Assembly: GCA_015233675.1 (NCBI GenBank)
Contig: JADFXH010000007.1
Coordinates: forward strand, 44,162 to 108,161
Origin: Candidatus Omnitrophota bacterium
GTDB lineage: Bacteria; Omnitrophota; Gorgyraeia; Zapsychrales; Fredricksoniimonadaceae
Direction of reading: 5' to 3'
DNA: 64,000 bases
The first letter of the stretch is position 1, and each line of letters starts with the position of its first letter. The notes under the pieces were generated by a model. That model worked only from the letters and a program-made list of their open reading frames with translations, did no database searches and had not been told where the DNA came from. Shown in pieces: positions 2,844-61,538 of the stretch. The position numbers were made by a program, and so were the translations under genes.

Positions 2844-3298
2844 ACCAGCTGCCCGTTAAAATATTCCTGTTAATCATTGCCAATGACCTGCTGGACACAT
2901 TAGCCCAGCTGTTAATGAAAAAAGGTTTAGGGCTTTGTGATTTAAGCAGTGTAGCCTCTTACTTTCAGCATCTCTTTAATTTTTCGAATCCTCATATATT
3001 CCTGTTTTGGATAGGACTCGGCATATATCTTTCCAATTTCTTTTTATGGATGAAGGTCCTTTCAAACACAGATCTAAGCGTTGCCCTTCCCTTGGCCAGC
3101 AGCAGCTATATTTTAATACCGTTTGCAGCGGTTTTCTTTCTACATGAATTTGTCAAGCCCATACGATGGCTGGGGCTGGTTTTGATCGTATTTGGGATAT
3201 ACTTTATCTCCAAAAGCAAACCCTCAGATTTATTAACACCCTCACCTGACCTCCCCTGTCAAGGGGAAGGAATAAACATAGGTGACACTCATGAATAA
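2822..3298 (+). CDS. small EamA/SMR-like (ArnE/ArnF-type) 4-TM transporter subunit
   Basis: 158-aa hydrophobic ORF with about 4 TM spans. It is paired with a similar ORF immediately downstream. Its last ~15 codons (SPDLPCQGEGINIG) read through a short hairpin repeat. Confidence 0.45.
   Translation: MEKITKINQLPVKIFLLIIANDLLDTLAQLLMKKGLGLCDLSSVASYFQHLFNFSNPHIFLFWIGLGIYLSNFFLWMKVLSNTDLSVALPLASSSYILIPFAAVFFLHEFVKPIRWLGLVLIVFGIYFISKSKPSDLLTPSPDLPCQGEGINIGDTHE
3252..3277. repeat. degenerate copy of the C-rich/G-rich hairpin repeat with GGAATAAA tail
   Basis: TCCCCT-GTCA-AGGGGA (6-bp stem, 3252-3267) is followed by AGGAATAAAC. It sits at the junction of the two small transporter genes and is translated as the tail of the first. 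Confidence 0.5.
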
Positions 3299-6919: not shown

Positions 6920-8167
6920 TTAACCTCCCTTAAAATCTGAAAAAACAATACAGGCGTTGCAATTACCGAATCCAAATGAATTGGATAAAACCGTATTCAA
7001 TGGGGCACGGCGTCCTTCTAACGGAACATAGTCCAAGTCACATTCCGGATCACGGTCCTTAAGATTGATCGTGGGCGGAATGAATTTATTCTTGATGGCT
7101 AATGCACAAACTACCGCTTCAATCCCTCCTGCGGCCCCGAGGCTGTGACCGATCATGGATTTCGTCGAAGAGACCGGTATTTTATAAGCTTGCTGTCCAA
7201 ACAAGTTCTTAATAGCCTTGGTCTCCGCACGGTCATTAGCCACTGTTGATGTTGCATGGGCATTTATATAATCTACTTTCGCCGGGTCTGCGTCTGCATC
7301 CTTGAGGGCATCAGCCATAACTCGAGTTGCGTCCTCACCGGTTATATCAGGCATGACCATATGTCGTGCCCCAGAATTGCTGGCATACCCGATCACTTCA
7401 GCATAAATCGGAGCATTTCTCTTAAGAGCATGGCTTAATTCTTCCAAAATTAACCCGCCGCCACCTTCACTCAAAACAAAGCCGTCGCGTTGTAAATCAA
7501 AAGGACGAGAAGCTTGGCTTGGAACATCATTTTTCTTAGAAACTACTCTTAACGCGCAATACGCTCCAAAATTTAAACGTGTCAGAGGGGCTTCAACTCC
7601 TCCGGTCACGCAAATATCCATATCGCCCCACTGAATTTTACGAAAAGCTTCTCCAACAGCATGACTGGAAGAGGCACAGGCTGTCGAGATCACCATGTTA
7701 GGTCCCAAAAGGCCATACATAATAGCAATATGGCTGGACACTGCATTAGGAGAAATTCTAGGAACCGAAGAAGGGTTGATTCGGTTTGCGCCCTTCTCAA
7801 GAATCGCCGCCATCTGTTCTTCGTGGAACATCATTCCGCCCAAACCGGAACCAATGACGACCCCAATCCTATGCTTATCTTCTTTTTCTAAATCTAACTG
7901 GCTGTCTTGCATGGCCATCTTGGTACAAGCCAAACCAAAATGGACAAATCTGTCGACCTTTTTAACCATCTCTGCAGGCATGAATTGGCTGGGGTCAAAA
8001 TTCCTGATCTCCCCGGCTATTTTTGTATCAAAGACATCCGTGTTAAAGCCGGTAATATTAACTATCCCTGAACGGCCTTCAACATTAGCCTGCCAAAAAT
8101 TATCTTTACCGACACCATTGCAAGCAACAACCCCTAAACCTGTAATAACCACACGCCGTTTATTCAT
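6920..8167 (-). CDS. fabF: beta-ketoacyl-ACP synthase II
   Basis: 415 aa. RVVITGLGVV N-terminus, active-site ISTACASSSHAVGEA, INAHATST and GHSLGAAG motifs. Confidence 0.85.
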   Translation of the reverse strand: MNKRRVVITGLGVVACNGVGKDNFWQANVEGRSGIVNITGFNTDVFDTKIAGEIRNFDPSQFMPAEMVKKVDRFVHFGLACTKMAMQDSQLDLEKEDKHRIGVVIGSGLGGMMFHEEQMAAILEKGANRINPSSVPRISPNAVSSHIAIMYGLLGPNMVISTACASSSHAVGEAFRKIQWGDMDICVTGGVEAPLTRLNFGAYCALRVVSKKNDVPSQASRPFDLQRDGFVLSEGGGGLILEELSHALKRNAPIYAEVIGYASNSGARHMVMPDITGEDATRVMADALKDADADPAKVDYINAHATSTVANDRAETKAIKNLFGQQAYKIPVSSTKSMIGHSLGAAGGIEAVVCALAIKNKFIPPTINLKDRDPECDLDYVPLEGRRAPLNTVLSNSFGFGNCNACIVFSDFKGG

Positions 8168-9472: not shown

Positions 9473-10512
9473 TTTAAAGAAGCTATATCAATGACGAATC
9501 GATATTTCACATCAGCCTTGATAACCCTTTCATAAGCCTCATTGATCTTGTTTATGGGTATTAATTCAATATCTGCGGTAATATTATGTTTGCCGCAGAA
9601 TTCCAGCATCTCCTGAGTTTCTTTAATTCCGCCGATCAAAGATCCCGCCAGACTGCGACGCCCCATAATCAAAGAAAAAGCATGAACTTGGGGAGCATCG
9701 CTGGGAACTCCCAGTAGGACCATGGTTCCGTCGCGTTTAAGTAATCCCAAATACTGCCCCCAATCCAATTTAACGGATACGGTATTAATGATCAAATCAA
9801 AATGACGCAACAAATTCTCAAATGTTTTGGGGTCACGGGTTTCATACACACAATCGGCGCCAAGACGCTTGGCATCGTCTTTCTTGTCCAAAGTTCGGGT
9901 CAAAACCGTAACCTCTGCCTTCATGGCATGTGCGATCTTAACGGCCATATGGCCTAAACCTCCTAAACCAATAACAGCCACCCGTTTTCCCGGGCCGGCA
10001 TTCCAATGGCGCAATGGCGAATAGGTGGTAACACCGGCACATAAAAGCGGAGCTACCTTATCAAGAGGAAGATTATCAGGAATATGAAGAACAAAATCCT
10101 GATGAACGACGATCTTGGTGGAATAACCGCCTTGAGCTAAGGTTTTATTATCTTTTTCAAGACAATTATAAGTAAAGACCGGTCTTGAACAAAACTGCTC
10201 TAAATTATCTTTGCAATCAGGACACTCACGGCAAGAATCAACCAAACAACCAACACCCACCTTATCTCCAACCTTAAATCGTGTCACCTTTGCCCCGACT
10301 TTCGATACTATACCTGCAATTTCATGTCCCGGAACCATAGGATAAAGGGAATTGCCCCATTCATTACGCGCTTGATGGATATCGGAATGGCAAACACCGC
10401 AATAAGCGATATCAATAGCCACATCATCAGCATCCACATCTCGACGAACAATTTGTAACGGCCCTAATGGCAGGGCGGCACTTAAAATCCCATAGGCTTT
10501 GACCTGCTGCAT
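9469..10512 (-). CDS. zinc-dependent NAD(P) alcohol dehydrogenase (cinnamyl-ADH/YahK-like)
   Basis: GVCHSDIH...PMVPGHEIAG catalytic-zinc motif, CRECPDCKDNLEQFC structural-zinc cysteines and GLGGLGHMAVK Rossmann motif. Confidence 0.85.
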   Translation of the reverse strand: MQQVKAYGILSAALPLGPLQIVRRDVDADDVAIDIAYCGVCHSDIHQARNEWGNSLYPMVPGHEIAGIVSKVGAKVTRFKVGDKVGVGCLVDSCRECPDCKDNLEQFCSRPVFTYNCLEKDNKTLAQGGYSTKIVVHQDFVLHIPDNLPLDKVAPLLCAGVTTYSPLRHWNAGPGKRVAVIGLGGLGHMAVKIAHAMKAEVTVLTRTLDKKDDAKRLGADCVYETRDPKTFENLLRHFDLIINTVSVKLDWGQYLGLLKRDGTMVLLGVPSDAPQVHAFSLIMGRRSLAGSLIGGIKETQEMLEFCGKHNITADIELIPINKINEAYERVIKADVKYRFVIDIASLK

Positions 10513-32000: not shown

Positions 32001-32666
32001 TCATTCCAAATCGATCATTTGAGTATTGCCCACATAATCAACACGTTTGAGCTGCTGCAGGGCATCGATCTTCTTGAGAATAGCAGTGACCTTGCTTAGT
32101 TCATTTTTTATTTTTGACAATGTCAAATGCTTTTTGTCCTTTGGGTCATTTTGAGACAAAAGGATTTCAAGATAGGTGATCGCCGCCATTAATGGTTGAT
32201 TCATATTATGGTTATACGTCACCACCATATTCTTAACTGTCTCGAGATTTGTAATTTGAATTTTTTCTTCTTCAGCCCTTTTGATGCGCAGATGGGCCTT
32301 CACCCGGGTTTTGACTTCTTCGGGATTTATAGGTTTACTAATATAATCAGCCGCTCCTACAGAAAAACATTTAACCATGTCTTCAGGCTTATTCATTGCG
32401 GTAATAAAAAGTATCGGGATAGACTGATGTTTTTCATGCTTCTTAAGCCTTTGGCAAACCTCAAAGCCGTCTATATCCGGCATGATGACATCAAGCAGTA
32501 TAATATCCGGCTTTTCACGCTCCACAGCATCGAGAGCAGCACGGCCGGAATCAGCTTGCACAACTTTATACCCCTCGTCAGCCTGTAAAAGCAGCATTGA
32601 TAAAAGCTCACGGTTCGTCTTTTTATCATCTACAACAAGTATTTTCGAGGTTACTCTTTCCGTCAT
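32001..32666 (-). CDS. receiver domain fused to an H-box/dimerisation-like domain without ATPase domain
   Basis: ILVVDDKKTNRELL ... ILLDVIMPDIDGFE receiver, then YNHNMNQPLMAAITYLEIL. The latter parallels the H-box [20 protein letters not shown] of the kinase at 33224-34390. No N/G boxes follow. Confidence 0.65.
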   Translation of the reverse strand: MTERVTSKILVVDDKKTNRELLSMLLLQADEGYKVVQADSGRAALDAVEREKPDIILLDVIMPDIDGFEVCQRLKKHEKHQSIPILFITAMNKPEDMVKCFSVGAADYISKPINPEEVKTRVKAHLRIKRAEEEKIQITNLETVKNMVVTYNHNMNQPLMAAITYLEILLSQNDPKDKKHLTLSKIKNELSKVTAILKKIDALQQLKRVDYVGNTQMIDLE

Positions 32667-33205
32667 TTCTTTTTATCCCATTTTTTGACGATCGCGCTGA
32701 TCTTGTCCTGCACCTTGCTTTTGATCTCAATATCACTAAGAATAGAGTTCAGCAACTCCTCGTGTTCTTCGGCCATACGCAGGATATCCAGTTTTAATTC
32801 TTCGTTATACCTTTCCAAACGGAAACGTTCAATCGCATGCTTCAAAGGAAGAAGCACCTTATCTTTATCCTCAATGGGTTTAAGGATGTAATCAAAAGCT
32901 CCTTCTCTTAGGGCGTCCTGACAGGTTTCCATCGTGCCGAATCCTGTTAAGAAAATCACAGGGATTTCTTTTTTCCTTAAATTAAGATATCTTAGTAATT
33001 CTATCCCCATTTTACCGGGCATTTTAAGATCACTGATAATAGCTTCAATATCTCTTTTTAATTCAACGACCTTAATAGCATTATCAACGCAATCCGCTAT
33101 GTACACCTGAAAACCTAATGCTTCCAGGAGTTCTTGAAGCGATTCTCTGATGGCTTCTTCATCATCCACTACTAAAACACAACCTTGTTTTTCCTTTGTT
33201 GCCAT
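32663..33205 (-). CDS. response regulator (receiver plus short helical C-terminal tail)
   Basis: VLVVDDEEAIRESL ... IISDLKMPGKMG ... FLTGFG ... KP. It has a 4-nt overlap with the next gene. Confidence 0.75.
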   Translation of the reverse strand: MATKEKQGCVLVVDDEEAIRESLQELLEALGFQVYIADCVDNAIKVVELKRDIEAIISDLKMPGKMGIELLRYLNLRKKEIPVIFLTGFGTMETCQDALREGAFDYILKPIEDKDKVLLPLKHAIERFRLERYNEELKLDILRMAEEHEELLNSILSDIEIKSKVQDKISAIVKKWDKKK

Positions 33206-33223
33206 GGTCTGCCTCCGGTTAAT

Positions 33224-34390
33224 TTACAAATTTTCCAATTCAGCTTTTAGCTCTTTATTTAATGCCTCAACACCGGCCAAATCCTGTTCTTTATCAAGAG
33301 GAAGCACAAAATAAAAAATCTTTCGCTCATTCTTTAAAGATGAAAACCCGATTACCCCTTTATGGCTTTTTATAATGGTAAAAGAAACGGAAAGACCAAG
33401 GCCGGTCCCTTTACCCGGGGCCTTAGTGGTAAAAAAGGGCTCAAAAAGATTCTCCTCTGATCCGCTTTTGACCGCTATCCCATTATCAATAACACCGGAG
33501 ACAATTGCGGGGAAGTTCTTCAATTTTTTAGAAATAAACCAGATGTGGCCGCCTTCCTGTTGATTAAATTTCTCATCAATGGCATCACGGGCATTGATCA
33601 GGAAATTAACCACCACATCCTGGATCTGGTAGCGGTCAATATAAACCTCAGGGAGGTCTTCTTGCAGTTGTAATTCCACGGCAATATTGTGGTCCTTGAA
33701 CTGTTGCGTCAAAAGAAAAAGTCCGTCAGTGATCGGGCGTTTGACGTCCCCTTCGGTAAAGGTGCCCATACGGCTACCGGAATATTCATGCATCCGCTTA
33801 ACGATAGTGCCAAGCCTGACAAACTGGTCCTTGATCTTGAGCATCTTGTTTTTCAGCACCAAATTTGTCACGAGAGCATCATTCATCAAGAGTCCCTCGA
33901 GATAGGATGATATGGCCATCAAAGGCTGGTTCATTTCATGGGCAACACCGGCACCCAATTCCCCCATCGCGGTCAATTTCGCAGCCCGTAAAAGCTGTGT
34001 CTGTTGGATTTTTAACTGCAGGTACAATCTTTGATTTTCCGCGGCCCGGTTGATATTCATACACAGTTCTTCTAAATTAAAAGGTTTAATAATATAATCA
34101 AAAGCCCCTTTTTTTAATGAGGCAATAGCGCTTTCCATGTCCCCATGCCCTGTCAGCATAATCACCTGCGCCTCGGCGTTCATGAGTTTAACTTTTTCCA
34201 GCATTTCCATGCCATCCATGCCGGGCATCGAAATATCGCAAATGATCACTTCCGGTTTCTCTTTGACAAAAGCTTCCAGGCCTTGCTCGCCGCTTGAGGC
34301 AACAAAAACCTCATAGTTCTTGAGTTCCAAGCTGCTTTTGAGCATCTTGCGCTGTATTTCTTCATCATCTACAATCAATATTTTTATCAT
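33224..34390 (-). CDS. receiver-histidine kinase fusion (REC-HisKA-HATPase)
   Basis: [14 protein letters not shown] ... [12 protein letters not shown] receiver, H-box [11 protein letters not shown]-box NARDAI and G-box GKGTGLGLS. Confidence 0.85.
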
Positions 34391-34413
34391 CTTTTTTAAT
34401 TCCCCTTCCCATA

Positions 34414-36027
34414 TCAGGATTTTTCAACGAAGGCGCGTTGTAAATTTTCAAAATTAATTTTTACCTGAAAATATAATTTCTTGATCTCTTCAATACTCCC
34501 TTTCTCTCTTGCCAGATTGTTTATCTCTGCGGCAGGCGTCGACACCGAAGTCAGCCTCAAATTAGAAAAAACCCCCTTTAGTATGTGCGAAGTTTGATCG
34601 ATATGAGTAAAATCATTTTCTACAATCGCTTTTTCTAAATTAGCAACGTCTGCACTTCCTTCCTCCACAGCCCCCCGCGCTATTTTTAAGTAAATATCTA
34701 GGGGGCATTGCAATTCTTTAGAATTTTGCTGGACCATTTCTTCAAACGAATTGATGTTGTTTTCATTGTTCATAGTTTCCCCTTCGCTAACCCCTCCCGC
34801 CAAGGGGAGGGAATCTAATTTGTTATTGCCCCCTCTCTCCAGGGGCGTAGAATTTAATGAACTATTGCCCCCCCCCACCAAAGGTGTGGAATTTAATGAG
34901 CTATTATGGTCTTTCTCAAGTTCAAGAGCCTTGATCTGCAGGGCCTTGATCTGGTCCTCATATTTCTGGATCATCTGGTCCATATGAATGGATTTGCGGA
35001 ATTCCTCAAACTCCTTGCCTTGGGCAAACTGCGCTATCGACTCAACCGCGCCTTTTGTCTTTTCATCGATAAGCTCAAGTTTCATCTTGCCTTCTTGGAT
35101 ACGCAATTTGATCTTGTGCAGTTCTTTCTTTTCTTCATCCATCAGCTTTTCAATATGAAACATTTCAATCTCTGATTTTTTGAAACGGGCCATACGTTCG
35201 CTTGTATCCTTCTGTGCGAGCGTCATGCGCTCGATCTGGTCAGTAAGACGCTTAATCACACTTTCCTTAACTGCGAGTTCTTCATTATTTTGCGGTACGT
35301 TCTTGCCCTGTTGCTCCATCATTGACAGCTGGGCCTTGAGCTTCACGAGCTCTTGCTCTTTCTGGCCGGACTCGGTTGCTTTTGTCTCAAGCTCAGCTTT
35401 AAGATTCTTAACTTCACTCAGAAGACGATTGATCTCGGTTTCCTTGACTGCGATTTCTTCAGTTTTTTGTAAGGCGCTCTTGCTTTCTTCTCCTAATCTT
35501 ATCAGCTCAACCTTGAGCTTCACAATCTCCTGTTCTTTCAAAGTGAATTCGTTCGCCTTGCCCTGGAGTTTTACTTTAAGACTCTCCACTTCACTGAGCA
35601 GGACCCTGTTCTCGCTTTCCTTATGCGCAAGCTCTTCACTGTTTTGAGAAACGTTTTTACCCTGTTCCTCCATTTTTGCCAACTGGACCTTGAGTTTCGT
35701 AAGCTCTAGTTCTTTCTGGGAGGACTCAGTCGCCTTTGACTCGAATTCTTCTTTAATCCTGCGCACTTCACCGACCAAATCCCGAAGATCATTATTTTTT
35801 GAAAGCAATTCTTCATTTTTTCGTGAGGTCTCAGCTTGCAATCTGTCGGATTCTTCTTTTATTTGTTCCAGCTCTTTCTTAAATTTCTCTGGAGCGGTTT
35901 CCGCAAAACTCAACTGCTCCTTTAATATTTTGATCTGCTTGTTTAATTTTGCGTCCTCATTAATGATATAAATGACAACACCGATAGCAACCACAGCACA
36001 CGTTATTGAAAAAATTATTAGGATCAT
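34414..36027 (-). CDS. membrane-anchored long coiled-coil protein with C-terminal HPt (histidine phosphotransfer) domain
   Basis: 537 aa. Contains an N-terminal TM (ILIIFSITCAVVAIGVVIYII), about 340 residues of heptad-rich E/K/L/Q sequence with about 59-aa internal repeats, and a C-terminal SHILKGVFSNLRL HPt signature. It has a 4-nt overlap with the upstream gene. Confidence 0.7.
   Translation of the reverse strand: MILIIFSITCAVVAIGVVIYIINEDAKLNKQIKILKEQLSFAETAPEKFKKELEQIKEESDRLQAETSRKNEELLSKNNDLRDLVGEVRRIKEEFESKATESSQKELELTKLKVQLAKMEEQGKNVSQNSEELAHKESENRVLLSEVESLKVKLQGKANEFTLKEQEIVKLKVELIRLGEESKSALQKTEEIAVKETEINRLLSEVKNLKAELETKATESGQKEQELVKLKAQLSMMEQQGKNVPQNNEELAVKESVIKRLTDQIERMTLAQKDTSERMARFKKSEIEMFHIEKLMDEEKKELHKIKLRIQEGKMKLELIDEKTKGAVESIAQFAQGKEFEEFRKSIHMDQMIQKYEDQIKALQIKALELEKDHNSSLNSTPLVGGGNSSLNSTPLERGGNNKLDSLPLAGGVSEGETMNNENNINSFEEMVQQNSKELQCPLDIYLKIARGAVEEGSADVANLEKAIVENDFTHIDQTSHILKGVFSNLRLTSVSTPAAEINNLAREKGSIEEIKKLYFQVKINFENLQRAFVEKS
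34788..34904. repeat. three tandem 39-bp units of a hairpin repeat, in-frame inside the HPt gene
   Basis: The units at 34788-34826, 34827-34865 and 34866-34904 each have the form C-rich arm / G-rich arm / GAAT(C/T)TAAT. Unit A forms a 7-bp GC hairpin (34792-34811). They translate as SLNSTPLVGGGNS / SLNSTPLERGGNN / KLDSLPLAGGVSE. Confidence 0.8.
35224..35739. repeat. about 177-bp (59-aa) tandem coding repeats, ~3 copies, in the coiled-coil region
   Basis: Protein-level repeats are KATESSQKELELTKLKVQLAKMEEQGKNVSQNSEELAHKESENRVLLSEVESLKVKLQG, KANEFTLKEQEIVKLKVELIRLGEESKSALQKTEEIAVKETEINRLLSEVKNLKAELET and KATESGQKEQELVKLKAQLSMMEQQGKNVPQNNEELAVKESVIKRL. Confidence 0.75.
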
Positions 36028-36644
36028 GCCTTTTCTCCACCAGGCTTAGGTTTTAAGCCCTTTAGCCTGCGAAGTTTTTCAAGTGTCGAATCGATCCCCT
36101 TGGATTCCTTCTCTTCAACGCCGATATCTTCAAGATTGCTTTGGACCTCTTGGTGAACATAAAGCTTGGAAAGATCAATCGACTCAAATTCGGCTGCTTC
36201 TTTAAGCTCCTGTAGCTTGTACTCGCGGGCAGGGCCGCTGAGACCTTTGAGCTCCTTTAGCATACCTGCAATCTTGTCGGAAAGCTTCTCCGATACAGCA
36301 TCGAGGGAACCTTGAAGGATCGCCCCCATATGCGTCTTAAATTCCTCGAGCGTCATGCCAGCTTGCCCCGCTGCAGGAGATGCTACAAGCGGCGCCGGCG
36401 GGACCGATAACGGGACAGCAGGGACCGGCGGCTCTGGTAGCACAGTTCTGGGCTCCTGTATCCTATTTTTCACCCGGGCCGTCACCACATCCATAGAACC
36501 CACAAATTCACCCAGCAGTAATTCCATCTCCATGAGCTCATCATTAAGCTCCTTACGTGACTGCTGAGTGGCATTGATCCTTTGAAATAATCTTGGGACC
36601 AAAACCTCGGGATCATCTATGGTATTTGTATCTTCAGGGCTCAT
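36024..36644 (-). CDS. hypothetical protein with central proline-rich linker (cluster-specific)
   Basis: 206 aa with LPEPPVPAVPLSVPPAPLVASPAAG between two helical segments. It has 4-nt overlaps at both ends, with the actin-like gene upstream and the HPt gene downstream. Confidence 0.5.
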   Translation of the reverse strand: MSPEDTNTIDDPEVLVPRLFQRINATQQSRKELNDELMEMELLLGEFVGSMDVVTARVKNRIQEPRTVLPEPPVPAVPLSVPPAPLVASPAAGQAGMTLEEFKTHMGAILQGSLDAVSEKLSDKIAGMLKELKGLSGPAREYKLQELKEAAEFESIDLSKLYVHQEVQSNLEDIGVEEKESKGIDSTLEKLRRLKGLKPKPGGEKA

Positions 36645-38032
36645 TGGCTCCCACCATTAATTGCATTAAACAAACATCCGCGCACAACACTGGTAAAAGG
36701 CTCCTTGGCGTGAAGGATATTCCCCACGGGAAATCCGAATTTAACCGATTTAATCTCCTCTTGGACGACATCAATAAAACCTGGCACCATGGATGATCCG
36801 CCTGCAAAAACGATATCAGCCGGCTCTTTAAAATGGGGAGTATCCGTGCTTTTGCCAAAGACACGGGCCATGTTCTCAATAAGATAATGGATATAATTAC
36901 GGTAATAGATCGCGATCGCTTCTTCTTCGCGGTTGGCGGGGATCTTGATACTCATGCCATGTTCCTTGATAGTTGAGACACGGGTCGTAGGGACACCAAG
37001 GACAGTCGCCGCGCTTTTATCGATCCAGTCACCGCCGCGCGTGATCGAAAACGACAGCACAGGCACAGACTTAAACGCGGCACATATATTGACCATGCCG
37101 GCCCCACAGGAAATGCCGATACCCGTAAAATCCTGATCTTCCATCTCGGAAAGGACAACGGCATATCCTTCGTCGATAACTAAAGGCTTAAAACCGATAT
37201 TCTTTAGGATCCCTTCAAAAACACCACGGTGGTAGATCGTATCCTGGTCGCGGTCAAGAGGTTTAGCGGGTACTGAAAAACAACAAACCTCGCCTTTTTC
37301 GCGAGGCTCCCATAAAATATTTTTCACTAAAAGCTGGATGATCGGGATAGACTCGGCTTCAGAAGGGTTTAATATCCCCATGTTCATGGACCGTTGTGTT
37401 TCCCGCCCGAAAATGTCCGCAAGCTCCAAAGCCATGCCACCTAAAACATAAAGTTTGTCCTGCAGGGCAACATATTTGATCTTAAGGCGTGTTAACAAAT
37501 CCTTGGTCGATTGATCACAACGCACGGAAAGAAAGGCATTGCGTTCATTCTTCACAAATACCCGTTTGTCCTCAACCTCACGGCTTGCGACAATATAGGC
37601 TGTTCCCAAGTCCAGGCCGACGCCTGTCCTGACCGCAGCGTTCCTGCCGCGGCTCAGCGCCGGAAGTACAACCGTAGTGGTTTCTTCTTCTTTGACAGGA
37701 ACCGGTTCTTGCTCTTCGCCCACCTCCTCGACCGTCTCCTCTTCCATGACAAATGCAAGCTTCTCGACAGGTGGAGGGGGAAGCTCTTCCCTTAGAAAAA
37801 CAGGCGGCTTGACGTCGCGGCCCATGGCGCGAGCACGAATATATTCGTTAATGGCGCGCAGTTTCGCGCGCATTTCGTCAACGGGAATTTCCTGGTCCCC
37901 ACGAAGTCTTTGAGGTTTAATTTCTTTTTCGTTAGAAAACTGCGGGCTCTTGCTTAGGTTGGAATAACTCTTTATCTTATCATTTATCTTTAATAATCGC
38001 TTTCTGATATCCTGCAATTCCTCATCGACCAC
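36641..38032 (-). CDS. actin-like ATPase (MamK/Mad28/MreB superfamily) with ~140-aa N-terminal extension
   Basis: GTG start at 38032 with AGAGG 7 nt upstream. Actin-fold motifs are GVGLDLGTAYIV (phosphate 1), FTGIGISCGAGMVNI (phosphate 2) and IVFAGGSSMVPGF (adenosine). It is a clear paralogue of 38134-39123. Confidence 0.7.
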   Translation of the reverse strand: MVDEELQDIRKRLLKINDKIKSYSNLSKSPQFSNEKEIKPQRLRGDQEIPVDEMRAKLRAINEYIRARAMGRDVKPPVFLREELPPPPVEKLAFVMEEETVEEVGEEQEPVPVKEEETTTVVLPALSRGRNAAVRTGVGLDLGTAYIVASREVEDKRVFVKNERNAFLSVRCDQSTKDLLTRLKIKYVALQDKLYVLGGMALELADIFGRETQRSMNMGILNPSEAESIPIIQLLVKNILWEPREKGEVCCFSVPAKPLDRDQDTIYHRGVFEGILKNIGFKPLVIDEGYAVVLSEMEDQDFTGIGISCGAGMVNICAAFKSVPVLSFSITRGGDWIDKSAATVLGVPTTRVSTIKEHGMSIKIPANREEEAIAIYYRNYIHYLIENMARVFGKSTDTPHFKEPADIVFAGGSSMVPGFIDVVQEEIKSVKFGFPVGNILHAKEPFTSVVRGCLFNAINGGSQ

Positions 38033-38090: not shown

Positions 38091-38122
38091 GATTGCTTCG
38101 TCGCTTCGCTCCTCGCAATGAC
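38091..38122. repeat. GTCAT-type palindromic-unit repeat, single arm
   Basis: GATTGCTTCGTCGCTTCGCTCCTCGCAATGAC lies in the gap between the two actin-like genes. It belongs to the same family as the units at 46335, 50001, 60165 and 61564. Confidence 0.6.
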
Positions 38123-38133
38123 ACAGGCTCTTC

Positions 38134-50845: not shown

Positions 50846-50886
50846 TTCAACACCCATCCTCCTATAAATAACCATTTTGTATGTCC

Positions 50887-50906
50887 CCTCCCCCTCAAGG
50901 GGGAGG
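50887..50906. repeat. CCTCCCCC-TCAA-GGGGGAGG hairpin repeat
   Basis: Perfect 8-bp GC stem with a 4-nt loop, followed by the AATAAAAATC tail shared with the copies at 3252 and 34788. It is intergenic. Confidence 0.75.
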
Positions 50907-50915
50907 AATAAAAAT

Positions 50916-51257
50916 CTACAAATTAAACAACAAATCACGGCACGAAGGAGGTATCCTTAATTTCCCATACCTGCTCTCGACCCTCACCTCTATGGCCTTT
51001 GCCATATTCTTAAGATCTTCTTTAATCTGATTTGTTTTGCCAGACCCCAGCTTGATCTGGGTCCCCAAAGACATGATCCTTACCGTCTCGGAAAATGTCA
51101 TTGCATCACAAATACGATTAATGTCCTCTTTCATGACGGACTCAATGTCAATGCCGTTTAATTCCTTGGCAATCGAGGAGCCCTTATCAAGCCGGCTTAT
51201 CCCTTCGCGAGCGGCATTGGTCAAAAAAGAAGCCATTTGTTCTTTAATATATGACAT
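50916..51257 (-). CDS. hypothetical soluble protein (cluster-specific)
   Basis: The start was moved to the ATG at 51257 (MSYIKEQMASF...), 1 nt after the stop of the upstream PDZ gene. No family was recognised. Confidence 0.4.
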   Translation of the reverse strand: MSYIKEQMASFLTNAAREGISRLDKGSSIAKELNGIDIESVMKEDINRICDAMTFSETVRIMSLGTQIKLGSGKTNQIKEDLKNMAKAIEVRVESRYGKLRIPPSCRDLLFNL

Positions 51258-52864: not shown

Positions 52865-52885
52865 TTCTTATCCTTTTCCCTCTTG

Positions 52886-52906
52886 CCCCTCCCTCAAGGG
52901 GAGGGG
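52886..52906. repeat. CCCCTCCC-loop-GGGAGGGG hairpin repeat
   Basis: 8-bp GC stem (52886-52893 pairs with 52899-52906), intergenic between the PDZ-permease gene and the TauE gene. Confidence 0.7.
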
Positions 52907-52918
52907 GCATAAATCCCC

Positions 52919-54721
52919 TTACGGAAGCATGCTTAAAAATATCAGGTAAATAGTCCCAATTGCAAGGACCATAAGAGCGACCGGGAATCCCCGGCGGCTG
53001 TAATTTGCAAAGGTCAAACCTTCATTCTTCTTGGGGTTTATCCCCAACTCCTCTACAAGAGTCTGAGAGACGATCCCTGCACTTGCCCCAGAAATGCAAG
53101 CACAAGCCCCGGCGATGGACCCAAGATTCAAGGCCCACCAGACAACATCCGTAAAATCAGCAAAACCTGAAGAAACAACAATAGGGACCAAAAAAGCCGT
53201 TGCCGGCCCGGAATTCAAAAGCGCCGTTAAAACTGTGGAAATCAGCATTAGAAAAATCGGATACAAAATCTTATTACCCATCGCCATCGTCAGAAGCATA
53301 TTGGAAATGACCTTCAAAAGGCCGGAATATAACGCTCCGCCGACAATAAGAAAAAGCGCGACAAAAAACAATATATCCATCAGGCTTATCTTTTTAATCA
53401 CGTCCCGGGCCTTCTGATTTTCAATAGCGAGCAGTAAAAACCCGCCACCCATCGCAATCGGCGCCAAGTGGACCCTAAACAACGGCAATATTATGAAAGC
53501 GACAAGGACGCATCCAAGAATAAAAAGAACCCTTTTGATCCGCGGCCAATCCATGTGCATATCCCGCAGTTCTTTTTCAACCTTCGAAAGAAAAGCCTTA
53601 TGGAGTTTCACTGACCTGATCTTGTCCTTGTGCCTCAATTCAAAAAACCACAAATACCAAAGGAAAATGGCTAAAAATACGCAACAGATCGGCCCCATGA
53701 CAATCAAAAAATCCAAAAACGATAAGCCAGCGCTTGATGCCATCAGCATGTTCGAAAAATCCCCTATCGGCGTAATGTTCCCACCGATGACTGAAGAAAT
53801 GATCTCAGCAATGACTACTGGAATAACGTCAAAATCCATGCCTCGGGCAGCATACACCGTGATCGGAATAATGACGAGAATGACCGAAATATTGTTCACG
53901 AACGCAGAGGAAATAAAAGTCATGACACACATACTCAAAATTACCTTGATCGAATCGGCTTTGGAGGCAACTATGATCTTCTTGGAAACATATTCAAAAA
54001 CACGCAGGTCTTCCAAAAATATGGTAAAAATGCTCATTCCTATATAAATGAAGATCGGGCTCACCCGAATGGCATCAAAAGCTTCGGACTGGTTGTAAAA
54101 CCCAAAGACCGAACCTGCAACCAGCATCAGTACCGCACCCAGCGTCACGCACACCGTGCGGTTAAAAAGGTTCAAAAAAAGCATGGTAAATGTGACTGCG
54201 ATGATGACCAAGACCACCAAAATATCACGCCCGCTGCCCCCCAAGATGTCGATGCCGGCATTGACAGGGATGGTATCGCTCATGTTTAAAGTCCTACCAT
54301 TACGGGAGATAACAAAGCTGATCTTGTCCCCGGGCTTGCTCTGTGACATAAGATACGCCATATGATTGGCTGACTGGACATCGATGCCGTTGCATTTAAG
54401 GATAACATCCCCGCGCCGAATATCAATGAGCCGGCGGGCAGAGCCTGCAGGCACATTGTTGACAAGGACCCCTGCCACCTGCGGAAGATTAAAGTCCCTC
54501 GCAATGATAGGATTAACGGTAATACCTTCAAATTCAATGGCATTGGTACCCCCCGACTGGGCAAGGCGCGGCGAGCCCCGCTGAGGCATATTCCTGGTAT
54601 CCATAAAAAGCGCGACCAAAACCACAATGACCACTAGGGCGATCGCTGCTTCCATGAACGGAAAATTCTTAAAACGCTTCAATTTGTCTTCGTCCATGGA
54701 TCTTCGGATGTCTAAAGCCAT
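52919..54721 (-). CDS. PDZ domain fused to ArsB/NhaD-type (CitMHS-like) ion permease; MamN-like
   Basis: 600 aa. An N-terminal TM is followed by a PDZ domain (GVLVNNVPAGSARRLIDIRRGDVILKCNGIDV...PGDKISFVISRNG), then about 11 TM spans with the two-fold permease architecture of arsenite/NhaD-type transporters. Confidence 0.55.
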   Translation of the reverse strand: MALDIRRSMDEDKLKRFKNFPFMEAAIALVVIVVLVALFMDTRNMPQRGSPRLAQSGGTNAIEFEGITVNPIIARDFNLPQVAGVLVNNVPAGSARRLIDIRRGDVILKCNGIDVQSANHMAYLMSQSKPGDKISFVISRNGRTLNMSDTIPVNAGIDILGGSGRDILVVLVIIAVTFTMLFLNLFNRTVCVTLGAVLMLVAGSVFGFYNQSEAFDAIRVSPIFIYIGMSIFTIFLEDLRVFEYVSKKIIVASKADSIKVILSMCVMTFISSAFVNNISVILVIIPITVYAARGMDFDVIPVVIAEIISSVIGGNITPIGDFSNMLMASSAGLSFLDFLIVMGPICCVFLAIFLWYLWFFELRHKDKIRSVKLHKAFLSKVEKELRDMHMDWPRIKRVLFILGCVLVAFIILPLFRVHLAPIAMGGGFLLLAIENQKARDVIKKISLMDILFFVALFLIVGGALYSGLLKVISNMLLTMAMGNKILYPIFLMLISTVLTALLNSGPATAFLVPIVVSSGFADFTDVVWWALNLGSIAGACACISGASAGIVSQTLVEELGINPKKNEGLTFANYSRRGFPVALMVLAIGTIYLIFLSMLP

Positions 54722-60251: not shown

Positions 60252-61538
60252 TTATTTCCCCCCACCAATAACAATACGCGCAGAATTCGGGTCCTGCTGT
60301 CCTGCAAAATTCTGCTGCGTTTGATTGTTCTGCATCATATTCTGATTATTCTGCGCTCCCATTGAAGATTCCAATATCTGGTGGCAATTGGAACACACGC
60401 CCCGATAAGCATGCGGCAGGGTCGCGTCGCGCGTGATCGGAGGAGCCTGTGTTGTTGGCTGCGTCATAGCGACCTGATTGCCATAATTGCCGTTGCCGTA
60501 ATAGGCATTCTGATTTTGAGCAGGCACCATAGCGGCCTGATTGCCATAATTGCCGTTACCGTAATATCCATTGGGCTGAACATTATATTGAAAATTTTGA
60601 TATTGAGGAGCCATCTGGTTATATTGCGGGGCGGTAGGCTGCATATTATTGGGCTGTTGATAGTAGCCTGGCTGTTGATACATTCCTGCCTGCCCCTGCA
60701 TGGCACCAGCTTGTATTCTTGGAATTGGGCAATATGGGTTGTTCCCCATGCCCTGTCCCTGCATATATTGACCACCCTGACCATAGGCCACTTGTGTATT
60801 CTCAACAACGCCTTGAGGCGCTTGAAAATTCTGATATTGGGGAGCCATCTGATTATATGATTGAGCGCCAGCCTGCATTCTAGGAATCGGGCAGTACGGG
60901 TTATTTCCCATGCCCTGACCCTGCATATATTGACCACCCTGACCAAACGCCACCTGTGTATTGTCAACAACACCCTGAGGTGTTTGCACAGGAACATAGG
61001 CAGGTTGAACTGTGCCATCAACAGGCTGAGGTGATGCTGATATCCTTGCCTGCCTGTAAAGCTTGACGACTTTCTGTGCACGGCCCTGATATCCGCCGAA
61101 TACCCTGATACCGAATTGCATTAAAATGTTATAATCTTGCGGAACGATATTCCCGACAATAACAGCTTCTTCCCCTTTACTGGCAACCAGATAAACAAGC
61201 TGAGTACCGGAGGCCCCGCCTCGATAGGGATTCTTGACGGCTTCAACAAGTTTCCCTGACAAAGGATTGACCACCAGGAAATAACGCGCTTCGTTTAATG
61301 TCGGAGCCACGTTAGATGCCAGGGACTGCCCGTCGGTTGCAATTACAATCATCCCGCAGGCGGGATTGCCCTGCATGGCATTTTTGGCATCTGGTGAAAA
61401 TAAGGCATAAAGGCCAACAATCAGCACCACCAAAATCGCACCAAAAATGAAAAAGGTGTTCAGGTCGGTATTTTTAAACTTCGACATGAATTCCTCAAAG
61501 GATTTTTCAAAACTTTTCCCTTGCGGTTTTTTTACCAT
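60252..61538 (-). CDS. TM anchor + NifX/NifB-C-like (Nitro_FeMo-Co type) domain + Q/N/G/Y-rich repeat region + single magnetochrome motif
   Basis: The ATG at 61538 has GGAGGG 5 nt upstream. The NifX-like region is IVIATDGQSLASNVAPTLNEARYFLVVNP...KNPYRGGASGTQLVYLVASKGEEAVIVGNIVPQDYNILMQFGIRVF. The low-complexity region has 54-aa repeats. The C-terminal LPHAYRGVCSNCH carries CxxCH at 60381-60395. Confidence 0.6.
   Translation of the reverse strand: MVKKPQGKSFEKSFEEFMSKFKNTDLNTFFIFGAILVVLIVGLYALFSPDAKNAMQGNPACGMIVIATDGQSLASNVAPTLNEARYFLVVNPLSGKLVEAVKNPYRGGASGTQLVYLVASKGEEAVIVGNIVPQDYNILMQFGIRVFGGYQGRAQKVVKLYRQARISASPQPVDGTVQPAYVPVQTPQGVVDNTQVAFGQGGQYMQGQGMGNNPYCPIPRMQAGAQSYNQMAPQYQNFQAPQGVVENTQVAYGQGGQYMQGQGMGNNPYCPIPRIQAGAMQGQAGMYQQPGYYQQPNNMQPTAPQYNQMAPQYQNFQYNVQPNGYYGNGNYGNQAAMVPAQNQNAYYGNGNYGNQVAMTQPTTQAPPITRDATLPHAYRGVCSNCHQILESSMGAQNNQNMMQNNQTQQNFAGQQDPNSARIVIGGGK
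60702..60980. repeat. 162-bp (54-aa) tandem coding repeat, ~1.7 copies
   Basis: PQGVVDNTQVAFGQGGQYMQGQGMGNNPYCPIPRMQAGA... is repeated as PQGVVENTQVAYGQGGQYMQGQGMGNNPYCPIPRIQAGA. The DNA copies are near-identical (for example CCCATGCCCTG(A/T)CCCTGCATATATTGACCACCCTGACC). Confidence 0.8.

Follow-up and report, generated by a model that had tools for sequence, protein, structure and literature searches.

The stretch analysed here is a 64,000-nucleotide window of contig JADFXH010000007.1 (assembly GCA_015233675.1) from a Candidatus Omnitrophota bacterium. It contains an open reading frame (ORF) in which a membrane-anchored coiled coil is joined to an HPt domain, and the two parts are separated by three in-frame 39-bp units, U1 to U3, of which U3 carries a strong hairpin. 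The same hairpin, or a close variant of it, recurs between other genes of the window. An earlier note made from the sequence had pointed out four such hairpin sites (34788, 50887, 52886 and 3252) and three in-frame 39-bp units between coiled coil and HPt; the sites and the units are all present, and the peptides given in that note are those of the same units rotated by one codon. We propose, with a probability of roughly two in three, that the hairpins are a small insertional palindromic repeat and that three copies of it now constitute the linker of a two-gene fusion.

The repeats stand exactly between the coiled coil and the Pfam match to Hpt (PF01627), which covers residues 454-530 and scores 26.9 bits against a cut-off of 24.6. 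An AlphaFold2 model of the C-terminal 178 residues, computed together with a homologue alignment, shows a five-helix HPt domain with a predicted local distance difference test score (pLDDT) of 96-98; with a Pfam score above gathering and a helical-bundle fold, we assign this part to the HPt class. Up to residue 423 the pLDDT stays below 50 and the model contains no secondary structure. The repeat-derived linker is thus predicted to be a disordered, Ser/Asn/Pro/Gly-rich segment of 46 residues, and we infer as its simplest role that of a flexible tether from the coiled coil to the HPt domain. All coordinates are collected in the table.

Table. Features of the fused gene, of the hairpin sites and of related palindromes (window positions unless a locus is named)
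Feature	Position	Strand	Details
Fused gene	34414..36027	minus	ORF, 537 aa; NCBI locus tag HQL12_06140, protein identity 100%
Parts of the fused protein			N-terminal membrane anchor and coiled coil 1-372; linker 373-418 (46 aa); HPt 419-537
U1	34864..34902	minus	codons 376-388, SSLNSTPLVGGGN; hairpin decayed; G9 run 34868-34876
U2	34825..34863	minus	codons 389-401, SSLNSTPLERGGN; residual 6-bp stem
U3	34786..34824	minus	codons 402-414, NKLDSLPLAGGVS; intact 8-bp hairpin 34791-34811
Shine-Dalgarno (SD)-like GAAGGGG and in-frame ATG of Met419	34771..34785	minus	homologue Met1 alignment; L245 junction
Spacer after 600-aa PDZ-CitMHS gene	52865..52918	minus	stop 52919-52921, TauE ATG 52864-52862; hairpin 52886-52906
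Spacer two genes further	50846..50915	minus	stop TAG 50916-50918, ATG 50845-50843; hairpin 50887-50906
Imperfect family member	3250..3270	plus	CCTCCCCT-GTCA-AGGGGAAGG, junction of two EamA half-transporter genes
Family B, copy in the window	38091..38126		upstream of Volactin gene
Family B, sites elsewhere	L247 9869-9958, 11812-11846, 13936-14024; L001 3776-3807; L245 3084-3115
Magnetochrome protein	60252..61538

Three translated units and a family of hairpins

The units span codons 376-414, 13 codons each, on the minus strand and keep the reading frame throughout; Tandem Repeats Finder reports the period as 39. Their coding strands read AGC TCA TTA AAT TCC ACA CCT TTG GTG GGG GGG GGC AAT (U1), AGT TCA TTA AAT TCT ACG CCC CTG GAG AGA GGG GGC AAT (U2) and AAC AAA TTA GAT TCC CTC CCC TTG GCG GGA GGG GTT AGC (U3). 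U1 and U2 are 79% identical, and U3 matches both of them in register at 59-64%. Five of the eight differences between U1 and U2 are synonymous, all five within the SSLNSTPL segment, which argues that this region has been translated for some time already and is not an assembly artefact.

On the coding strand, U3 contains a perfect 8-bp hairpin, CCCTCCCC-TTGGC-GGGAGGGG (plus strand CCCCTCCC-GCCAA-GGGGAGGG), whose folding energy is predicted at -15 kcal/mol, and weaker stems are found in U1 (4 bp with mismatched extensions) and U2 (6 bp). Is this hairpin merely a by-product of the peptide? The segment SLPLAGG uses the codons TCC, CTC (8% usage), CCC, GCG, GGA and GGG, a combination with a joint frequency of roughly 4e-5 given the peptide. 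Because of this low probability, we consider that in U3 the hairpin most probably preceded the peptide. U1 and U2 are tandem relatives of U3 that have lost complementarity, and the three units could have arisen either by tandem duplication or by repeated insertion beside an existing copy, as in clusters of repetitive extragenic palindromic (REP) sequences.

The hairpin at 52886 has arms identical to those of U3, and the arms at 50887 are nearly so (CCTCCCCC-TCAA-GGGGGAGG). At 34791, 50887 and 52886 the stems measure 8 bp with loops of 4-5 nt, the stem at 3250 is imperfect, and the stability of the stems ranges from -15 to -21 kcal/mol. We refer to this set as family A. All four sites have the plus-strand sequence YCAAGGGGRRGG in common, a pattern that was derived after the fact. 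The exact hairpin pattern occurs twice, against none expected from 100 shuffles. In a test that makes no use of a given sequence, perfect GC-rich hairpins with a stem of 7 bp or more numbered six in the window, three of them with an arm 6-mer in common, and a family of three hairpins appeared in none of 300 first-order Markov simulations. The observation of the earlier note is upheld. The palindromes are flanked by TTAG, TATG, TATG and GTAG at variable spacing and share only an A/T-rich, TTWATT-like leader; a conserved GTAG-like 5' tetranucleotide was not found beside the four window palindromes.

The four hairpins also share their plus-strand orientation, one lying in plus-strand and three in minus-strand genes, and across the window (1-64000) every 2-kb bin has a negative GC skew. 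The common orientation could reflect a replication-strand bias of insertion; with n=4 it is not significant (p about 0.125).

The imperfect copy lies within an annotated 158-aa EamA ORF, 20 nt upstream of the ATG of the second gene (3291). The EamA domain ends at residue 130, which leaves a 28-aa tail that includes the hairpin, compared with a tail of 3 aa in the downstream paralogue. This site is a second case within the window of the element absorbed into a reading frame. The tail (3212-3298) overlaps the ATG of the next gene by 8 nt, and the hairpin sits inside a further, outer stem of 7 bp formed by 3242-3248 and 3279-3285.

Filled, empty and fused junctions in related genomes

We compared the two intercistronic sites with those of a sister genome (L247, GCA_015233335.1; 600-aa protein 89% identical) and of a JGI metagenome contig (L250; 85%). 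After the 600-aa gene, L250 has only 14 nt between stop and start codon (TAA-GGTTAGGATAAGAA-ATG), whereas the window has 54 nt with the hairpin and L247 has 63 nt holding a different palindrome. Likewise, the site two genes on measures 24 nt in L250 (TAG-TTTTTTAAGGAGACGGGTGTAGAA-ATG), 70 nt with the hairpin in the window, and 149 nt with two inverted copies of the other palindrome in L247. The flanking coding sequences and the ribosome-binding regions align well in all three, while the middles of the spacers differ. Relative to the empty L250 sites, the lineage of the window has gained ~41 nt at the 52886 site and ~45 nt at the 50887 site. Two different elements at the same two sites, together with an empty state in a third genome, are the classical mark of insertion. 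We thus regard the intergenic hairpins as lineage-specific insertions of ~41-45 nt that resemble REPs or MITEs (miniature transposable elements with inverted repeats), small and mobile or at least insertional, and that target the gap just after a stop codon. Two copies lie in the intercistronic spacers, one overlaps the 3' end of a gene and one stands at a locus that was formerly a spacer.

The palindrome found at both sites in L247, GAGATTGCTTCGC...GCTCGCAATGACA, reading GAGATTGCTTCGCCCTTCGGGGCTCGCAATGACA, belongs to a second family, B (AGATTGCTTCGTCGCTTCGCTCCTCGCAATGACA). It has a single copy in the window and at least five sites in the sister genome; these include inverted pairs and fill the same spacers in which the window carries the CCCCTCCC hairpin. 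Two further relatives have GC-rich hairpins of their own immediately 3' of stop codons: L244 has two 8-bp GGGCCGGC/GGGCGGCC-type stems directly after its coiled-coil gene (7603-7654), and L243 has GGGAGGG-GCAGTGA-CCCTCCC, with the same arms but their order reversed and followed by GAAATAAAAT, after a response-regulator gene (9670-9690).

What stood at the place of the three units before? All HPt-less coiled-coil homologues (P0003-P0010) end 0-5 residues past the LELEK motif, where the repeats begin. An exhaustive HMMER search with residues 376-537 returned 99 homologues, which are mostly stand-alone proteins of 105-130 aa, and the HPt matches ranking best after P0002 are free-standing, 112-131 aa long, with their first residues at or close to the position of Met419. 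For instance, residue 1 of one of them, P0031, aligns to query position 44, that is, to Met419. Its locus (L245, GCA_015233375.1, a metagenome-assembled genome (MAG) of the same group) is syntenic with the window and has a separate 120-aa HPt gene next to a 270-aa coiled-coil gene that is 60% identical to window residues 187-372. There, the upstream protein ends in ...LELEKKP, and the junction reads ...CTT GAG AAA AAA CCG TAA, then GGGGGGCGCGCG (12 nt), then ATG AGC AAT GAA AAT AAT (MSNENN); in the window the HPt part starts with ATG AAC AAT GAA AAC AAC (MNNENN). Since both L245 genes are adjacent and in the same frame, loss of the stop codon alone would have been enough to fuse them.

The distance from the conserved GAGAAA to the ATG of HPt amounts to 21 nt in L245, 72 nt in a second locus with the fused gene (L001, from the sister genome) and 138 nt in the window. 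The excess of the window over L245 is therefore 117 nt, exactly 3 x 39. Deletion of the 54 extra nucleotides that the alignment with L001 places in the window restores CCG TAA GGGGTGTCC ATG, a result that depends on this alignment and that we regard as suggestive. The GAAGGGG tract with the ATG of Met419, kept in both fused genes, probably marks where ribosomes bound and translation began when HPt was still a gene of its own. The third G-tract, 3' of U3, could also be read as a part of the element; the L245 comparison favours the old ribosome-binding site, and the assignment is ambiguous in that an intergenic site also has a purine tract there. Volactin identity to the window is 84% for L001, 75% for the unfused L245 and 63-70% for the HPt-less loci, and on this ranking the window genome and L001 most likely inherited the fusion from their common ancestor. 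Both fused ORFs contain a run of G, the G9 of U1 on the minus strand and a G10 in L001 (11081-11090); in the window, a +1 or -1 slip at G9 would meet TAG or TAA within 2-5 codons and would end the protein where the HPt-less homologues end.

Based on these comparisons, we propose that a small palindromic repeat of ~40 nt, REP/MITE-like and with an A/T-rich flank, enters short spacers of co-transcribed genes and lands just past the stop codon, ahead of the next ribosome-binding site. The ancestral junction would have joined a membrane-anchored coiled-coil gene to a separate HPt gene of ~119 aa in the same frame. The stop codon would have been lost there, and 117 nt in the form of three element units now bridge the gap in frame, so that two genes have become one and the element copies are translated as the disordered linker. 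The evidence for U3 as a putative element copy is good: its arms are those of the 52886 hairpin, its 39 nt compare with insertions of 41-45 nt, and its layout of A/T-rich leader, hairpin, 17-22 nt with a purine-rich tract and ATG is that of the intergenic copies. The common descent of all three units with the intergenic copies, as well as the order of insertion, fusion and duplication, we infer from the same comparisons. The idea of the earlier note that a mobile hairpin was exapted as a flexible linker is supported in this form by the empty and filled orthologous sites, the predicted disorder and the codon choice of U3. It needs to be amended in one respect, as the element, although translated as a linker, would not have entered an existing linker but filled the stop-codon and spacer junction of two genes.

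Several observations weigh against this explanation. The hairpin is intact in U3 only, and U1 and U2 could be ordinary duplicates of a tandem peptide repeat. In the L001 linker, which aligns to U3, the C-rich arm is conserved and faces an A-rich arm that lacks complementarity to it, and family A is absent from 43 kb of the sister genome. The element may thus have been in place when the genes fused, or it may have arrived or been renewed later. Either L001 lost an ancestral hairpin, or the lineage of the window gained or renewed one through selection, gene conversion or a fresh insertion. Moreover, the density seen is four sites in 64 kb, and no conserved termini, target-site duplication or transposase was identified, the ORFs of the window not having been systematically screened for REP-associated tyrosine transposases (RAYTs).

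Alternative explanations of the hairpins

Could the units be an ordinary low-complexity tandem peptide repeat (SxLNSxPLxGGx), whose likeness to a hairpin comes from adjoining Pro (CCN) and Gly (GGN) codons and not from common descent? SSLNSTPL is indeed kept between U1 and U2 through five synonymous changes, dinucleotide-shuffled units fold almost as stably as the real ones (z = -0.7 to -1.9), and the linker of L001 does without a hairpin. However, U3 requires a rare Leu codon and five further specific synonymous choices, its arms recur unchanged at 52886, the length of the unit matches what was inserted at the intergenic sites, and the simulations never produced a three-hairpin family; we therefore consider a pure peptide repeat unlikely. 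A misassembled repeat, a natural concern with a MAG as the source, has hardly any credibility in our view, since any two units disagree at 8-16 of their 39 positions, the reading frame is unbroken, synonymous changes are over-represented among the differences, and the entire 117 bp fit inside one short read. Almost as improbable is that the hairpins are intrinsic terminators or conserved regulatory stem-loops instead of inserted repeats. Although they lie just downstream of stop codons and a scan for terminators picks out 34792-34811 on the plus strand, this match runs antisense to the gene there, and no copy is followed by a T-run in the gene direction: the stem is followed by GGACAUAC, CAAGAGGG, UUAGCGAA or AAUAAAC, and the U-rich tract precedes it. 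Furthermore, no Rfam family reaches its gathering score anywhere in the window, and the orthologous sites in close relatives are empty or hold an unrelated palindrome, so that no conserved structure is seen there.

A further possibility, which is compatible with an origin of the hairpin as an inserted element, is that the U3 hairpin has been selected as an RNA element, be it for an internal start at Met419 that would yield both fused and free HPt, for ribosome pausing, or for protection or processing of the mRNA. The layout of U3 agrees with that of the intergenic copies down to the SD-like tract and the ATG, GAAGGGG and ATG are conserved in the sister gene, and the stem has remained perfect while U1, U2 and the sister copy decayed. 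The perfect stem could be accounted for just as well by a recent insertion or by gene conversion, though, and a stem of 8 bp offers an elongating ribosome little resistance. In addition, a strong hairpin is present in just one unit of the three, and the copies occur in both orientations with respect to transcription (plus-strand genes at 3250, minus-strand genes elsewhere). A selected RNA element appears to us possible but rather improbable, and the second reading of the earlier note, an mRNA structure that would modulate translation of HPt, is likewise speculative. More speculative still, and in our opinion doubtful, is that the linker acts as a switch and not as a passive tether: hairpin, SD-like tract and Met419 would allow a free HPt beside the membrane-anchored fusion, and slippage at G9 would let a population flip between a fused and a two-protein state. 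Were this true, a scaffold protein of the magnetosome cluster would be reversibly coupled to a phosphorelay.

Genomic setting and relation to known repeats

The fused gene has as neighbours genes for HEAT-repeat proteins, a ParA-like ATPase, two Volactin actin-like proteins, a hybrid response-regulator/histidine kinase and a response regulator. Based on this content and on the magnetochrome protein, we place the window of this magnetotactic Omnitrophota MAG in a magnetosome gene cluster region, and the coiled-coil gene may, judged by its position, be the counterpart of a 'mad' gene. The HPt, hybrid kinase and response-regulator genes of a phosphorelay stand directly beside the Volactin, ParA-like and HEAT-repeat genes (32663-38032). 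The L247 locus encodes MamI, Trypsin/PDZ, cation-efflux, TPR, LemA and FeoB proteins. The coiled-coil part itself has a long internal duplication at 35230-35760 (residues ~90-265; KATESSQKELELTKLKVQLAKMEEQGKNVSQNSEELAHKES versus KATESGQKEQELVKLKAQLSMMEQQGKNVPQNNEELAVKES), and the length of the duplicated region varies widely across homologues. By tethering HPt to a membrane-anchored coiled-coil protein of the magnetosome cluster, the fusion may bear on a link between magnetosomes and signalling.

Is the hairpin core restricted to this lineage? To our scan for exact 20/21-mers, 185,579 species-representative genomes returned at least 159 matches at at least 120 loci, whereas base composition would lead one to expect, roughly, anything from a handful up to a few tens in the whole collection. 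Among the matches listed are Acetobacteraceae, Prevotella, Sphingomonadales, Clostridia and others, and in many of these genomes the exact hairpin CCCCTCCC(N)YCAAGGGGAGGG is multi-copy (L123-L242; e.g. L156 1647-1741, L164, L197), with conserved lineage-specific flanks and frequent inverted pairs 60-150 bp apart. The same hairpin core thus appears to have become a high-copy repeat in unrelated bacteria, by convergence or by spread. Many of the listed copies have an extra C- or G-tract 3-5 nt away, which gives four consecutive G-runs on one strand, a G-quadruplex-like arrangement. An extra upstream C-tract shared with the Acetobacteraceae-type repeats was considered and dropped: the four window sites came out on top when searched with an nhmmer profile of 88 external copies, yet the alignments stopped short of the tract. 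A literature search for the hairpin sequence gave only unrelated eukaryotic matches, and in viral contigs a looser hairpin pattern matched at about chance level.

How do these hairpins relate to known repeats? REPs, together with the bacterial interspersed mosaic elements (BIMEs) and REP doublets forming hairpins (REPINs), are mobilised in Proteobacteria by RAYT transposases (Bertels & Rainey 2011, PMC3116915). The window hairpins resemble them in being short, GC-rich, imperfect palindromes, in their extragenic position between co-oriented, co-transcribed genes, in their presence or absence at orthologous sites, in their genome-specific families and in their clustering. They differ by the lack of a GTAG-type tetranucleotide, by arms of pure pyrimidine and pure purine, by their Omnitrophota host and by the translation of one locus; no RAYT gene was seen, again without a systematic screen of the window ORFs. 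The family behaves like a REP/REPIN family, but since a conserved GTAG-like tetranucleotide is absent, and only 64 kb bear on copy number and RAYT association, we do not assign it to REPs. With this case, REP-like elements reach into Omnitrophota, and in sister genomes two families of repeats compete for shared spacers. A classical role proposed for REPs is that of intercistronic stem-loops which stabilise upstream mRNA segments. By analogy, the operon position and the stem stability found here would fit such a role, whereas the sites are not conserved in relatives.

The Rickettsia palindromic elements (RPEs), which are MITEs inserted in frame within protein genes, and some other MITEs provide known examples of palindromic repeats translated in frame (PMC10969869). 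As in RPEs, a palindromic repeat lies within an ORF without disturbing its frame and contributes extra peptide between functional parts of a protein. RPEs, however, are ~100-150 bp long, three to four times the length of the unit here, encode a conserved peptide and sit in single genes, while the window unit, from an Omnitrophota host, measures 39 bp and bridges two former genes in three tandem copies; it shares with RPEs only the principle of in-frame translation. Gene fusion by loss of a stop codon across an in-frame intercistronic spacer is in turn a general mechanism, and the common frame of the L245 genes agrees with it, as does the survival of the old start Met and its SD-like tract within the fused ORF. 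Here, though, the junction was not merely read through but enlarged sixfold by a repeat element. While in-frame translation as such was known, what would be new is that an element fills a stop-codon junction, amplifies there and so gives rise to a two-gene fusion, a case that is unusually well documented by comparison, since it includes sites both empty and filled, a relative in which the genes are separate and a sister in which they are fused. A tiny, selfish palindromic repeat would here have created new protein architecture, turning a gap in an operon into an interdomain linker.

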